DNA from: Zestosphaera tikiterensis
Lineage (GTDB): Archaea; Thermoproteota; Thermoprotei_A; Sulfolobales; NBVN01
DNA: 32,000 nucleotides
NCBI GenBank assembly: GCA_003056265.1
Contig: NBVN01000002.1
Coordinates: forward strand, 510,001-542,000
Direction of reading: 5' to 3'
In this document: positions 24,514-29,829 of the stretch, one piece after another
Numbering within the stretch: position 1 is the first letter of the stretch
Layout of the letters: each line of letters opens with the position of its first letter
Position numbers and translations under genes: made by a program
Notes under the pieces: model-generated
Seen by the model: only the letters and a program-made list of their open reading frames with translations
Database searches by the model: none
Told to the model about the DNA's origin: nothing

Positions 24514-24525
24514 TTTAATATATAT
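24514..24525 (+). promoter_or_regulatory. TATA-like box (TTTAATATATAT) for the TasA-like operon
   Basis: An A/T box about 32-43 nt upstream of the ATG at 24557. It argues for the MNTKKALG start rather than the ATG at 24524, which overlaps the box. Confidence 0.45.
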
Positions 24526-24556
24526 GGTGTGGATACCTAAAACGCAGGTAAAAAAC

Positions 24557-25132
24557 ATGAACACGAAAAAAGCATTAGGTATAAGCGCCCTAACACTGTT
24601 AGTGTTAGTTCTAGGAGCAGCACTAGCTATGTGGAGTGAAACGCTAAAAGTAAACGTAAAAGTAGAAACAGGCGAAGTAAAGGTTAAATGGTCTGACTGG
24701 TCCTGCAGCGACACAGGCCCAGATCCTCAGGCAGAAGGATACAATAACAAAGAAGGTAAAGACGTAGCCAGTTGCGGCATTGAAATAGAAGTAAAGGACA
24801 ACGAAGGCAATCCGATAAAGTTGCTCGTTACTCTAAAGAACGCATACCCCGGATATAGCGTTGATATAACCTTAACCGTTGATAACATCGGTACAATACC
24901 AGTAAAACTCTACGACCATAAAATAAATGCTAATAAAACAGTCTTATCAGCTCTGTCTATAGATCTGCCAATACCTGAAGATACGCAGATAGATCCTGAT
25001 GGCAGCAGCACCTATACATTACATATTACGGTACTGCAAAGCGCTGCAGAATCAAGCACATACACGTTTGAAATTGAGTTAACGTTCGCTCAATGGAATG
25101 AAGTACCAACTACAACAACCACCGCAGCTTAA
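24557..25132 (+). CDS. Secreted TasA/camelysin-like protein with a SipW-type signal region (paralogue 1); candidate fibre subunit
   Basis: The signal region is MNTKKALGISALTLLVLVLGAALA, followed by MWSETLKVNVKVETGEV. This compares with the bacterial/archaeal SipW-cognate pattern A-x-F-S-D-T-E...N....G-T. An internal LKNAYPGYSVDITLTVDNIGTIPVKL is present. The C-terminus is YTFEIELTFAQWNEVPTTTTTAA. The track ORF starts at 24524. Confidence 0.65.
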   Translation: MNTKKALGISALTLLVLVLGAALAMWSETLKVNVKVETGEVKVKWSDWSCSDTGPDPQAEGYNNKEGKDVASCGIEIEVKDNEGNPIKLLVTLKNAYPGYSVDITLTVDNIGTIPVKLYDHKINANKTVLSALSIDLPIPEDTQIDPDGSSTYTLHITVLQSAAESSTYTFEIELTFAQWNEVPTTTTTAA

Positions 25133-25151
25133 GCAACTATAGGTGGTGTTA

Positions 25152-26871: not shown

Positions 26872-28120
26872 TAAAGTGTTTTTACGTTCTTTAAGTAATG
26901 AGTTGCGGGGGCTGCGTTTTAAGTTTCTAGCTTACGTAGCTTTAGCTCTTTTCATATTTATTTACTTCTACCCATTGATAATAACGCCTAAAGGCCTCAT
27001 ACCCTACGTAATACCCCCCACAACATCTTTAATTGTTTTCAGCATTCTCTACGGCGTAGTAGCTACGTTTAAACCTTACGAGGAGAGAGTGCTTAATTTA
27101 GTGATTCTCTTCTTCGTTATTAAGATCCTCACAGACCTAACGTTAGGTGTTGTTAAGGGGTTTGGGTTAAACATCTTAACCTTAACTTCATACGTAGGCA
27201 TAGCTATGAATTTAATGAGGGAGTTACCTACGGTGTTAGGTTTTGAAGTTGTTAGAGCTTACTTATTAAGTAAGGCGAGGGGAGGTAAGTCTGTAGTTGC
27301 TTTCCTATCGATATCTGCTGCCTTCGCTTTAATGAATGAACCTATAACTAGATACGTTAACATGCTTAACTCAAGTTATAATGAGGTAGTTAACTTCATG
27401 TTTAAGAACTACGTTCCCGCCTTAGCTCAAAACATGCTTTTAGGGATTCTCTACGTAAGCGGTGGGTTTAACGCCAACGCGCTTTACGCATTACTCGATA
27501 AACTCTACATATACACAACACCCCTACTCCCCAACATAAGTTTAGGGGTTAGATCCGTTATCGCCGTGATTCAAGCCTTCGTGTTCTTCTCCATCGTTGA
27601 AGCAACCTTAAAAGAGCAGGACGTCTTCAGTAAATACTCTTTCAAGCTATCTAAGAATTTCTTAAGCTATTTAATACCTGCTTTAATATTCCTTTTAGTA
27701 GGTGCTTTACTTCTAAGTAACGCTAGGCTCTTTGTAGTAAGCAGCGGTAGTATGGTACCAACTCTAAACGTTGGTGACGTAGTTTTAGTCGTTAAATCGA
27801 ATGAGGTGGGTGTTGGGGACATCATAGCTTTCTACGTAGGTTCTGAAGTAGTTATCCATAGGGTTTACGACGTAGTCGTTGATTCCGATGGCTCAACATA
27901 CTTCACAACTAAAGGCGATAATAACGACCACGTAGACCCGTTTAAGGTTGAGCCTCCGTACGTAGTGGGTAAGCTTGCTTTAGTTATTCCATACGTGGGT
28001 ATCATCTGGATTTACGTTATGAAGTTCTTCATAGAGTATTTAAACCTACTATCCTTCGTTTTCTTCTCTCTTATATTAACTCAATCATTAAGTTTTTCGA
28101 GGTGGTTATATGGTGAGTAA
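26855..28120 (+). CDS. Archaeal/eukaryal-type signal peptidase I (SipW/Sec11-like, S26) fused to an N-terminal ~265-aa polytopic membrane domain of unknown function
   Basis: The catalytic boxes lie in the C-terminal third: VVSSGSMVPTLNVGDVVLV (Ser), VVIHRV (His) and TKGDNNDHVD. About 7 hydrophobic helices precede them and about 2 follow. The gene overlaps the upstream gene by 17 nt and the downstream gene by 11 nt. Confidence 0.8.
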   Translation: MSIGVNKVFLRSLSNELRGLRFKFLAYVALALFIFIYFYPLIITPKGLIPYVIPPTTSLIVFSILYGVVATFKPYEERVLNLVILFFVIKILTDLTLGVVKGFGLNILTLTSYVGIAMNLMRELPTVLGFEVVRAYLLSKARGGKSVVAFLSISAAFALMNEPITRYVNMLNSSYNEVVNFMFKNYVPALAQNMLLGILYVSGGFNANALYALLDKLYIYTTPLLPNISLGVRSVIAVIQAFVFFSIVEATLKEQDVFSKYSFKLSKNFLSYLIPALIFLLVGALLLSNARLFVVSSGSMVPTLNVGDVVLVVKSNEVGVGDIIAFYVGSEVVIHRVYDVVVDSDGSTYFTTKGDNNDHVDPFKVEPPYVVGKLALVIPYVGIIWIYVMKFFIEYLNLLSFVFFSLILTQSLSFSRWLYGE

Positions 28121-29204
28121 ATTAAACCTTAAGTTAAAAGTATTTAAATCCCAGGGTTTTAGGATAGCGTTACTTATAGTTTTAACTACGGCTTTCGTGA
28201 TATCCACCGCTGGTTTAGTATATTCCTACAGCGTGCCTACAGCAACGCGTGAAGTATATACCTACGTTAAAGTAAGTCAGAAGTTTAGCGTGGATTACGT
28301 AGCTTACGTTAAGGAATCGCTAATCTACGATAATAGAACCGTCATAACCTCGCGAGAGCCTATATACTTTAAACTTTTGAAGGGGCTTAACGTAACTTAT
28401 ACTTACGTATTAACTTCAGAAACACCTATTAAAAACGTTAGAGGGTCGTACACCGTTACGTTAGCTTTAAACACTACATCGTGGAGTAAGACCTTCACCA
28501 TTGCGGGAGGTGATTTAAGTGAAGTGCTTAATAAGACGAACTACCTATATATAAACTTCACAGAGCTTTTCGACTACATAAGTAAGGTGGATAAGGAGGT
28601 AGGTGGGAGTAGCAAAACATACGACATCATCTACTACTTCAGCTTTAAACCAACTATCACCGCAGTAGTCAACAATTCTAAAACTCTCACATATCAATTA
28701 AGCCTAACCCCTAAAGTTAAGGTAAGCTATGAAGTAGGTAAGAGCGTTATAGACTTCACAGTTCAAGACACTGAGAAAGAGTTTAAAGACACCTACGAGT
28801 TAATTAACCCAACATACGTTAGGGTTTTCGGGCTTACGTTAGATTTAAGCGTATTTAGACTTGCTTCCATGACCTCTTCATTCATCTGCTCAGGTTTAAT
28901 AGCCTTCATCGCGATAACCTCAACGATATCCTCAAGTAGGGAGAAGCCTTTAGTCGATAAGTTAATTAATAAGTATAAAGACATCATAATAGCTTCAACA
29001 AGCGATGAGATTGGAACAACGCAAGCAAGCAGGAAGGTCGTGCTTACAGACTTTAAAGATATGGTGAAAGTAGCTACTATAAGGAAGAAACCAATAATAA
29101 AAGTCTCTAACGAAGCGGGGAGTAACGTAAGGTTTATACTAGTAGATGATGACGTAATTTACGAGTATATACCAAGCGAAGAAAGTTTTAAAATCCAAAA
29201 ATAG
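28110..29204 (+). CDS. Bitopic/bi-anchored membrane protein of unknown function: TM, ~210-aa extracellular beta-rich domain, TM, ~90-aa cytoplasmic tail. Putative fibre assembly or anchoring accessory.
   Basis: The TM segments are FRIALLIVLTTAFVISTAGLVY and SSFICSGLIAFIAITSTI. There are six N-X-S/T sequons in the predicted external segment (NRT, NVT, NTT, NKT, NFT, NNS). The gene is translationally coupled to the peptidase gene. Confidence 0.55.
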   Translation: MVSKLNLKLKVFKSQGFRIALLIVLTTAFVISTAGLVYSYSVPTATREVYTYVKVSQKFSVDYVAYVKESLIYDNRTVITSREPIYFKLLKGLNVTYTYVLTSETPIKNVRGSYTVTLALNTTSWSKTFTIAGGDLSEVLNKTNYLYINFTELFDYISKVDKEVGGSSKTYDIIYYFSFKPTITAVVNNSKTLTYQLSLTPKVKVSYEVGKSVIDFTVQDTEKEFKDTYELINPTYVRVFGLTLDLSVFRLASMTSSFICSGLIAFIAITSTISSSREKPLVDKLINKYKDIIIASTSDEIGTTQASRKVVLTDFKDMVKVATIRKKPIIKVSNEAGSNVRFILVDDDVIYEYIPSEESFKIQK

Positions 29205-29205
29205 T

Positions 29206-29829
29206 TTAAGTTGAATTTAACTCAAGTATTCTTTTAGCTAGAAACTCACTCATGCGGTCTAAATCATCGTATTCGTTGTAGGGAATTACATTCTCTTTAA
29301 AGAATGTATTGGCACCGCTTAAAAGCTCTGTAAGTTTGTCATATATCTTCGACGGTACGAAACACGTTACTTTCCGACCGGTAGCTTTCGAATGTACGTA
29401 AGATATGAAAACTTCGATAACACCGTTTTCAACGTCCTCCGAAGGCTCTATAATAACTACTTCAGAAAGCTCGGCTCCTGCGTTACCCTTTTTACTTAGA
29501 ACATTCACGCGAATTTTAATGCTATCAGCTAATCTCCTGTCTTTAGCATCTACAGCCTGCAGCAATTGCTCAAGCTTAAATAGGAAGTCCCTACCTTTAG
29601 ATGTTAAGGTGAAATACATGTGTCTGCCGTCGCTTATAGGTATTATAAGTTCGCTACTCATTAAGCCTCTTAAGTATTTATCTAAGGTGCGGGTGTTTAG
29701 TCCTGAAGCATATAGGACGTGAGTTTTTAAGGTATAGTTTTTAGAAGCTATGCATTTAAGTATTCTATGCAGAATCTCTAAATTAGAACGTTTTTGTTTG
29801 CTAGTGGACGAATGATATGTACTAATCAT
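29206..29829 (-). CDS. Winged-helix (HTH_45-like) transcriptional regulator with a C-terminal domain of unknown function
   Basis: The N-terminus RSNLEILHRILKCIASKNYTLKTHVLYASGLNTRTLDKYLRGLMSSELI....YFTLTSKGRDFL is a typical small archaeal wHTH. A GTTTATAAAAG TATA-like box lies about 35 nt upstream. Confidence 0.65.
   Translation of the reverse strand: MISTYHSSTSKQKRSNLEILHRILKCIASKNYTLKTHVLYASGLNTRTLDKYLRGLMSSELIIPISDGRHMYFTLTSKGRDFLFKLEQLLQAVDAKDRRLADSIKIRVNVLSKKGNAGAELSEVVIIEPSEDVENGVIEVFISYVHSKATGRKVTCFVPSKIYDKLTELLSGANTFFKENVIPYNEYDDLDRMSEFLAKRILELNST

Follow-up and report, generated by a model that had tools for sequence, protein, structure and literature searches.

The abpX locus of Zestosphaera tikiterensis, a probable operon for a TasA-superfamily extracellular fibre

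A five-gene locus of the hot-spring archaeon Zestosphaera tikiterensis, lying in a 32,000-nucleotide stretch of its genome (contig NBVN01000002.1, positions 510,001 to 542,000; hereafter the window), is very probably the abpX operon of this organism, encoding an extracellular fibre of the TasA superfamily that most likely polymerises by donor-strand complementation. The products are called P1-P5 in gene order, the fourth being a signal peptidase I (SPase). An open reading frame (ORF) scan of the window reproduced all coordinates of an earlier sequence-only annotation (the original prediction) for these genes and for a convergent winged helix-turn-helix (wHTH) gene, and with them the overlaps of 17 and 11 nt inside the operon and the single nucleotide between the P5 stop codon and the wHTH gene. 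Exact-sequence look-up identified the six proteins as PUA33590-33595, P1 being 100% identical to PUA33590.1 of Z. tikiterensis strain NZ3.

24557-25132, + strand: P1, abpX, predicted major fibre subunit; 191 aa; PUA33590.1 / A0A2R7Y7S4
25152-25832, + strand: P2, AbpX-like minor subunit; 226 aa; PUA33591.1 / A0A2R7Y7T0
25921-26871, + strand: P3, predicted tip protein; 316 aa; PUA33592.1 / A0A2R7Y9R0
26855-28120, + strand: dedicated signal peptidase I; 421 aa; PUA33593.1 / A0A2R7Y7S8; 17-nt overlap with the P3 gene
28110-29204, + strand: P5, DUF5305-family membrane protein; 364 aa; PUA33594.1 / A0A2R7Y7T3; 11-nt overlap with the SPase gene
29206-29829, - strand: HTH_45 winged-helix regulator, convergent; PUA33595.1 / A0A2R7Y7T9; 1-nt gap to the P5 stop codon

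The five-gene locus is already known, having been described from structure predictions in a preprint of January 2026 (Sleutel et al., bioRxiv 10.64898/2026.01.04.697558; hereafter Sleutel et al., 2026). To show what an archaeal abpX locus looks like, the preprint works through that of Z. tikiterensis (text; Fig. 5B and S16A; Table S3). It gives the same five accessions, and assigns them as the major pilin AbpX, an AbpX-like minor component, the tip protein, SPI and the SPI-accessory protein. AlphaFold3 (AF3) co-assembly of P1, P2 and P3 is also reported, the AbpX-associated SPase I is described as having ten transmembrane (TM) helices, the accessory protein is identified as DUF5305, and transcription factors are noted as occasional members of such loci (Sleutel et al., 2026). 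The name AbpX, and the protein's place in the TasA superfamily, go back to another paper (PMC12518558). The combination of genes, which the original prediction had put forward as new, is therefore not new, since exactly this locus is illustrated in the preprint. Its core reading matches the published one, namely a fibre operon of the TasA superfamily in which several paralogous subunits are accompanied by a dedicated SipW/Sec11-type peptidase carrying a polytopic domain, by an accessory membrane protein and by a wHTH gene. The main value of the present analysis is confirmation, in that a reading of the sequence alone recovered a system described in the literature only in 2026; the remaining interest lies in the role of the polytopic domain of the peptidase, the anchoring of the fibre and the regulation of the operon.

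Fibre subunits and conservation of the locus

The signal regions of the three secreted proteins end in ALA (P1), GVA (P2) and GLA (P3), as originally proposed. The conserved segment said to follow them directly is indeed present but begins one position later, a single Met or Leu preceding the W/L: the sequences read M-WSETLKVNVKVETG in P1, M-WSETLRVNVAVATG in P2 and L-LSERLEVNVSVETG in P3. With a slash marking the predicted cleavage site, the region is ...A/M-W-S-E-T-L in P1 and P2 and ...A/L-L-S-E-R-L in P3, where the acidic residue is kept and Leu replaces the aromatic one. P1 is made up of a Sec signal peptide (aa 1-24, ...ALA/M), the donor strand MWSETLKVNVKVETG and a beta-sandwich core. 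An AlphaFold2 (AF2) model of P1 with a predicted local distance difference test (pLDDT) score of 83.7 combines an eight-strand beta-sandwich with a signal helix and an N-terminal strand that is left unstructured, a modelled pattern that would be expected of a subunit awaiting its donor strand and that has been reported for AbpX.

A search of the Protein Data Bank (PDB) with P1 using phmmer recovers AbpX, both as chain 9sj2_C at E=1.6e-7 and as 9rhp_A, "Archaeal bundling protein X". A profile of 32 P1 homologues matches AbpX at E=5e-13, with profile positions 26-162 aligned to chain positions 2-139 and the match starting at the donor-strand Trp (W2). Other traits of the AbpX clade are also found in P1: besides similarity over both donor strand and core, these are a low isoelectric point (pI), an acidic composition and an adjoining SPase I of ~10 TM helices. 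Mature P1 has a pI of 4.37 and 15.0% Asp+Glu, mature P2 a pI of 4.20 and 14.8%, and mature P3, which contains 9 Cys, a pI of 4.78 and 13.0%; the published values for the AbpX family are about 4.0 and about 15% (Sleutel et al., 2026). The 32 aligned homologues all have A24, M25, W26, C50 and C73, and nearly all of them S27 and E28. These proteins also share a conserved acidic loop, CSDTGPDPQ...EGKDV, located at a gap in the alignment to AbpX.

The paralogy of the three subunits, another element of the original prediction, lies far beyond chance. P1 and P2 are 33% identical (BLASTP E=5e-28), and P1 and P3 are joined by two collinear high-scoring segment pairs (E=3e-7 and 3e-5), in which P3 5-105 aligns with P1 8-124 and P3 272-313 with P1 137-182. 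In direct sequence searches P2 matches AbpX at E=0.01, and P3 is tied to AbpX only through P1; neither P3 nor P5 has a meaningful sequence match in the PDB. Because P3 matches P1 in two flanking blocks, the FN3-like region between them is an insertion within the fold. To judge from this alignment, P3 is an AbpX-like fold split by a ~165-aa FN3-like, Cys-rich insertion at aa ~106-271. The FN3 and Cys-cluster decorations ascribed to P3 are thus present, inserted between the halves of the fold rather than appended to it. UniProt names P3 an FN3 domain protein, and the Pfam fn3 model gives no match to it. The assignment of P2 as minor subunit and of P3 as tip protein comes from published AF3 models (Sleutel et al., 2026).

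How widely is this arrangement kept? A total of 63 loci was compared, comprising 61 that encode P1 relatives and 2 archaeal loci from exact protein look-up (59 archaeal and 4 bacterial), and the fractions given here refer to archaeal loci with enough flanking sequence. The peptidase gene lies downstream of P1 in 43/43 of these and a P2 orthologue follows P1 in 42/43; P5 is detectable by tblastn in 32/41. The third paralogue, which takes differing forms, is limited to some of the loci. A long peptidase also accompanies three of the four bacterial homologues (Syntrophomonadaceae, Dehalococcoidia and Clostridia), one of which has a P5-like gene as well. No peptidase was detected at the remaining bacterial locus, from Moorellales, where the contig stops about 1 kb past the subunit gene. 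The module, for which the original prediction had proposed a genome comparison, is therefore conserved. Other Zestosphaera-like loci carry a second, short SPase I gene, encoded on the strand opposite to abpX and ~2.1-2.3 kb upstream of it (L002 5611-6296, - strand; same position in L003, L004, L005, L009, L013 and L014). It is absent at that position in the window, where the upstream neighbours are an archaemetzincin gene and an IPCT/DIPPS-like gene.

The signal peptidase and the DUF5305 protein

The fourth gene encodes a SipW/Sec11-type signal peptidase I, as first proposed. The protein passes TIGR02228 (76.8 bits against a cutoff of 51.85, E=1.6e-21) and matches Pfam S24/S26 over aa 272-349. 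Its 53.6 bits against the SipW equivalog model NF046067 lie below the cutoff of 190, so that it is not a SipW orthologue. It consists of an N-domain of ~8 TM helices (aa 1-265), a TM anchor, a catalytic domain with S299, H335, D355 and D361, and a C-terminal TM helix. An alignment with abpX-linked peptidases from related loci (50 sequences of 381-431 aa) shows S299, M300, P302, H335, R336, G354, D355 and D361 to be conserved in 50/50, within the motifs SGS299M and H335R. Judged by these motifs, the protein is a Sec11/SipW-type Ser-His (not Ser-Lys) enzyme of the S26B archaeal/endoplasmic reticulum type. Its AF2 model (pLDDT 73.7) contains ~10 TM helices, and the best Foldseek matches of that model are human SEC11C and SEC11A (7p2p/7p2q, E~1e-5), followed by Streptococcus pyogenes SipA.

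The large polytopic domain to which the peptidase was said to be fused is present, and is the least understood part of the abpX system. It is encoded by the 5' part of the gene:

26855-27649, + strand: coding region of the SPase N-domain, ~8 TM helices

The long N-domain occurs in 50/50 of the aligned peptidases, archaeal and bacterial; the peptidase of one further locus (L058) is instead a 766-aa fusion to DUF5305. Direct Pfam scanning of aa 1-265 at E<=10 and scans of the individual family members found no Pfam family, a profile of the domain found nothing among PDB sequences at E<=10, and the Foldseek matches of the full SPase model were to the catalytic domain only, with none to the N-domain. 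Conservation within the domain is centred on P223 (50/50), which forms part of a PxLP motif, and on a membrane-embedded Glu, E131 (46/50); G47, G98, G102 and P226 are each kept in at least 45/50, with a GFG motif around G98, and both E131 and R134 are invariant in a smaller alignment of 18 N-domain sequences. CPBP/Rce1-like, exosortase, rhomboid and prepilin-peptidase identities were considered for the N-domain and set aside on a comparison of motifs, the conserved His, Cys or Asp residues that these families require being absent. It can be proposed, tentatively and with more doubt than confidence, that the N-domain is a second functional module, a substrate gate or an assembly/anchoring platform that would hand cleaved subunits to polymerisation, with the HTH_45 protein acting as a dedicated regulator at the palindrome upstream of abpX (see below). 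Were this so, the N-domain would make the abpX-linked peptidases a distinct "pilin-processing and assembly" class of signal peptidase.

P5 is predicted to comprise a first TM segment, an extracellular domain with 6 N-glycosylation sequons, a second TM segment and a cytoplasmic C-terminal domain. Its hydrophobic segments lie at aa ~14-40 and ~251-276, and the label bitopic, under which it had been introduced, is for this reason not strictly correct. Syntenic proteins of Ignisphaera aggregans and another Zestosphaera share 37-38% identity with P5 (E 1e-78 and 8e-62), and both pass PF17231 (DUF5305), scoring 30.1 and 50.3 bits where the cutoff is 29. Exhaustive phmmer searching with P5 retrieved 294 cluster representatives, and all ten distant homologues that were scanned are DUF5305 above cutoff; a word-indexed homologue search, nearly blind for P5 and weak for the peptidase, gave 1 match for the former and 21 for the latter. 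P5 belongs to DUF5305 by transitive homology, because its orthologues and homologues pass the PF17231 model, and UniProt labels it accordingly. It is not a new accessory protein, as had been thought, but a divergent DUF5305 member (TafG-like). Four of the ten distant homologues (P0168, P0201, P0219 and P0249) are fused to a signal peptidase domain, and the 766-aa ORF of L058 is a further SPase-DUF5305 fusion. These natural fusions support a partnership between P5 and the peptidase, and P5 is predicted to be an accessory subunit of the SPase.

Fibre assembly and alternative readings

The homology, motifs, catalytic residues and synteny set out above are observed and, together with the literature, suggest a route of assembly whose cleavage, polymerisation, subunit roles and regulation are inferred or drawn from published work. 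A single TATA promoter, seen in the sequence at 24514-24524, would drive transcription from P1 to P5, and P1, P2 and P3 would be exported by way of their Sec signal peptides. The ~10-TM peptidase (Ser299-His335) would then cleave after ALA, GVA and GLA, probably together with the DUF5305 protein; gene linkage, the natural fusions and homology to AbpX are the grounds for both the cleavage and the partnership. Cleavage would leave the mature N-terminus M-W-S-E-T-L..., and the amphipathic strand so freed, whose second residue is aromatic and whose fourth is Glu, would enter the open groove in the beta-sandwich of the next subunit. Ca2+ probably bridges acidic residues, by analogy with the solved P. 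abyssi AbpX described in the literature. P1 would form the shaft, with P2 as minor subunit and P3 at the tip, where its FN3-like insertion would be displayed as a likely adhesin; these roles follow the published AF3-based assignment. The neighbouring HTH_45 protein probably controls the operon.

A number of observations weigh against the fibre reading or some part of it. P1-P3 have no match to Pfam PF12389 (Peptidase_M73) even at E<=10, and the match of P1 to TIGR04090 stays below threshold (E=0.015, 15 bits against a cutoff of 60). Among the 32 P1 homologues, 8 match the SipW-cognate signal model TIGR04088 (best E=0.0047) and 3 match the other such model, all below cutoff. P5 itself has no Pfam match at E<=10, and no cell anchor for the fibre was identified among the genes of the locus. 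AbpX, TasA and AbpA are not among the top 50 Foldseek matches of the P1 monomer model in the PDB, a search made with the untrimmed query, signal helix included. The subunit roles come from AF3 models in the preprint, whose experiments concern Pyrodictium abyssi AbpX and not Zestosphaera, the Zestosphaera locus being treated through those models (Sleutel et al., 2026).

Could P1-P3 be secreted or surface proteins that do not polymerise, such as S-layer-associated adhesins or CARDB/cohesin-like modules, and merely share a signal type with their dedicated peptidase? The Foldseek search just mentioned returned nothing other than generic beta-sandwiches (GAE/adaptin ear and CBM3, E~2.5e-3, TM-score ~0.3), and P1 has sub-threshold Pfam matches to CARDB (E=0.001) and Cohesin (E=0.0037). 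The homology of P1 to AbpX, a solved donor-strand fibre, is nonetheless significant and covers the donor strand itself, and the conservation of A24, M25 and W26, with S27 and E28 close behind, is hard to explain in a functionless disordered N-terminus; a non-polymerising role is thus very unlikely. That the system is an AbpA-type bundling pilus like that of Pyrobaculum calidifontis, or a bona fide TasA/camelysin orthologue, is more improbable still. These systems share the logic of a donor-strand subunit paired with a signal peptidase I, bacterial AbpX-like relatives have N-terminal Peptidase_M73 matches (E 0.007-0.08, 13-17 bits against a cutoff of 22.5), and the literature unites AbpX, AbpA and TasA in one TasA superfamily (Sleutel et al., 2026; PMC12518558). 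Yet the PDB sequence and profile searches that recover AbpX bring up neither TasA nor AbpA chains at E<=10, Peptidase_M73 is missing from P1-P3, and published clustering sets AbpX apart from the AbpA and TasA clusters (Sleutel et al., 2026). The weak SipW-cognate and Peptidase_M73 matches are consistent with a TasA link and do not establish membership. Of the kinship to TasA and AbpA claimed in the original prediction, the superfamily stands, and the closest relative is AbpX of P. abyssi (PDB 9sj2/9rhp) rather than AbpA or TasA proper.

The remaining alternative concerns P5, which might anchor the fibre in the membrane or serve at its base as the assembly platform, the donor strand of the first subunit being taken up by the beta-rich extracellular domain of P5. 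The locus contains no other anchor candidate, the AbpX paper calls the fibre anchor unresolved (Sleutel et al., 2026), the two TM segments of P5 flank a large, sequon-rich extracellular domain, and the gene is kept alongside the pilin genes in at least 32/41 loci. Against this, the SPase-DUF5305 fusions speak for P5 being a partner of the peptidase both physically and functionally, and in haloarchaeal Tafi loci DUF5305 has been assigned to assist the peptidase TafD (PMC12337348). An anchoring role is accordingly judged unlikely, although it and the role of peptidase accessory are compatible and do not exclude each other. A type IV pilin system was also considered and rejected: the enzyme that processes the subunits is of the signal peptidase I kind and no prepilin peptidase, and the conserved stretch behind the cleavage site forms an amphipathic beta-strand instead of a hydrophobic helix.

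Read as a donor-strand fibre operon, the locus can be set beside several known systems. P. abyssi AbpX (9sj2, 9rhp), the only AbpX of an archaeal abpX locus with experimental structures, is the homologue of P1 and shares the W2/E4 donor strand, low pI, two conserved Cys and an adjoining 10-TM SPase I. Its locus is minimal, with abpX and the peptidase only, whereas that of Zestosphaera adds the minor subunit, the tip protein with its FN3 insertion, the DUF5305 protein and the convergent HTH_45 gene. The tapA-sipW-tasA operon of Bacillus subtilis likewise unites a donor-strand subunit, a Sec11/SipW-type Ser-His peptidase and an accessory protein, and has a biofilm matrix role. Its gene order is different, however, SipW is short with few TM helices where the Zestosphaera enzyme has ~10 and falls below the SipW equivalog cutoff, TapA is unrelated to DUF5305, and P1-P3 fall short of the Peptidase_M73 model. 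The haloarchaeal Tafi pili follow the same modular plan, with donor-strand pilin(s), a signal peptidase I and a DUF5305 partner, together with a tip protein and a regulator of transcription, the components being TafB (regulator), TafD (peptidase), TafE (pilin), TafG (DUF5305) and TafC (tip) (PMC12337348). Most haloarchaeal Tafi pilins nevertheless have twin-arginine translocation (Tat) signals where the Zestosphaera subunits have Sec-type signals, and TafE forms a separate sequence cluster.

Like the Zestosphaera system, AbpA/AbpB of P. calidifontis (PMC9245690) is a TasA-superfamily donor-strand filament of a hyperthermophilic archaeon, often adjoining an SPase I gene. AbpA differs in showing no sequence similarity in the PDB searches and in its distinct published cluster, and the proposed anchor, AbpB, has no counterpart identified in the Zestosphaera locus. 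Gram-negative chaperone-usher pili also insert an N-terminal donor strand into an incomplete Ig-like/beta-sandwich fold and have tip and minor subunits. They differ in their export and processing machinery, and the Zestosphaera locus encodes neither a chaperone nor an usher; AbpX is reported to assemble without chaperones, triggered by Ca2+ (Sleutel et al., 2026).

Fibres of the AbpX type have been proposed as a widespread Ca2+-triggered, chaperone-free biofilm matrix system of archaea and bacteria, and are of interest as thermostable hydrogel materials. In the Zestosphaera locus the system is complete, from shaft, minor subunit and tip to peptidase, accessory protein and regulator. Z. tikiterensis is the host of the nanoarchaeote Candidatus Nanoclepta minutus, and it may be speculated that surface fibres could matter in the cell-cell contact between the two.

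Regulation, expression signals and neighbouring genes

The convergent wHTH gene encodes an HTH_45 protein (ArnR1/Sso10a-like), in agreement with the regulator originally proposed. The match to Pfam HTH_45 (PF14947) covers aa 13-89 with E=6.7e-13 and 48.9 bits against a cutoff of 25.5, and the score against the Sso10a family model, 48.2 bits, is below the cutoff of 60. An HTH_45 gene is linked to abpX in 25/35 loci with enough flank, a figure that counts linkage and not orthology, as many of the upstream cases align in the wHTH part only. The gene lies upstream on the same strand in 18, downstream and convergent in 5, upstream and divergent in 1 and downstream on the same strand in 1. The five downstream convergent cases are those of the Zestosphaera/Ignisphaera group, as in the window. 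On the strength of this recurrent linkage to abpX, the HTH_45 protein probably regulates the operon.

The expression signals read from the sequence are as follows.

24451-24472, strand not assigned: candidate operator, inverted repeat GATACGTATCTATGATACATAC, upstream of the promoter
24514-24524, + strand: archaeal TATA box TTTAATATATA, 33-43 nt upstream of the P1 start codon
24544-24549, + strand: GCAGGT Shine-Dalgarno-like motif of P1, conserved upstream of abpX in nine loci
25872-25880, + strand: oligo-T tract TTCTTTTTG in the 88-nt P2-P3 spacer
32-40 nt upstream of the ATG of the HTH_45 gene, - strand: TATA box TTTATAAAA

The 9 aligned upstream regions of abpX share a palindrome of the GTAT(N)ATAC type, which keeps its position in all of them, and the TATA box is kept as (C/T)TTAATATAT or TTTATAAAAT in 9 related loci. 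The P1 start at 24557 is favoured over the ATG at 24524, because the latter overlaps the conserved TATA box and the N-termini of homologues align at 24557. Shine-Dalgarno motifs of the GGTGG type precede P2 (GGTGGTG), P3, the peptidase and P5; with the overlaps of the last three genes, they would fit a single operon with translational coupling. The oligo-T tract may partly terminate transcription after P1/P2, which would be the two subunits made in greatest amount, and so set the stoichiometry of the subunits. A scan with sigma-70 promoter and intrinsic terminator models, which are not applicable to archaea, found fewer sites than in shuffled controls.

The genes on either side of the locus are these.

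23932-24435, + strand: archaemetzincin, 167 aa, with an intact HELGHIFGLEH motif
29995-30711, - strand: polytopic membrane protein, 238 aa

The archaemetzincin flank was correctly recognised (NF033823, 145.9 against a cutoff of 145). No more than 4 other loci (L028, L033, L045 and L048) have an M54 gene a few kb or less from abpX, and on this count the archaemetzincin was rejected as a part of the system and judged to be probably ordinary local synteny. The product of 29995-30711 matches no Pfam or NCBIfam family at permissive thresholds (Pfam E<=10), which leaves its earlier label, polyprenol-kinase-like, unverified.

Further observations concern the rest of the window. A 94-nt tRNA gene at 30792-30885 (- strand), scored at 53.1 bits by Rfam and missed by ARAGORN, has the appearance of an archaeal tRNA with an intron, possibly Val-UAC, its 3' CCA being encoded. 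The gene at 22000-23871 (+ strand) encodes a 623-aa protein with an N-terminal nucleotidyltransferase domain, a CDP-alcohol phosphatidyltransferase domain and an extra hydrophobic C-terminal extension of ~190 aa; it matches the bifunctional IPCT/DIPPS of di-myo-inositol-phosphate synthesis best, with 213 bits that fall far short of the cutoff (580). At 6954-8279 (+ strand), a PALP (pyridoxal phosphate-dependent) enzyme domain is fused to a C-terminal PadR-type regulator domain, an unusual fusion.

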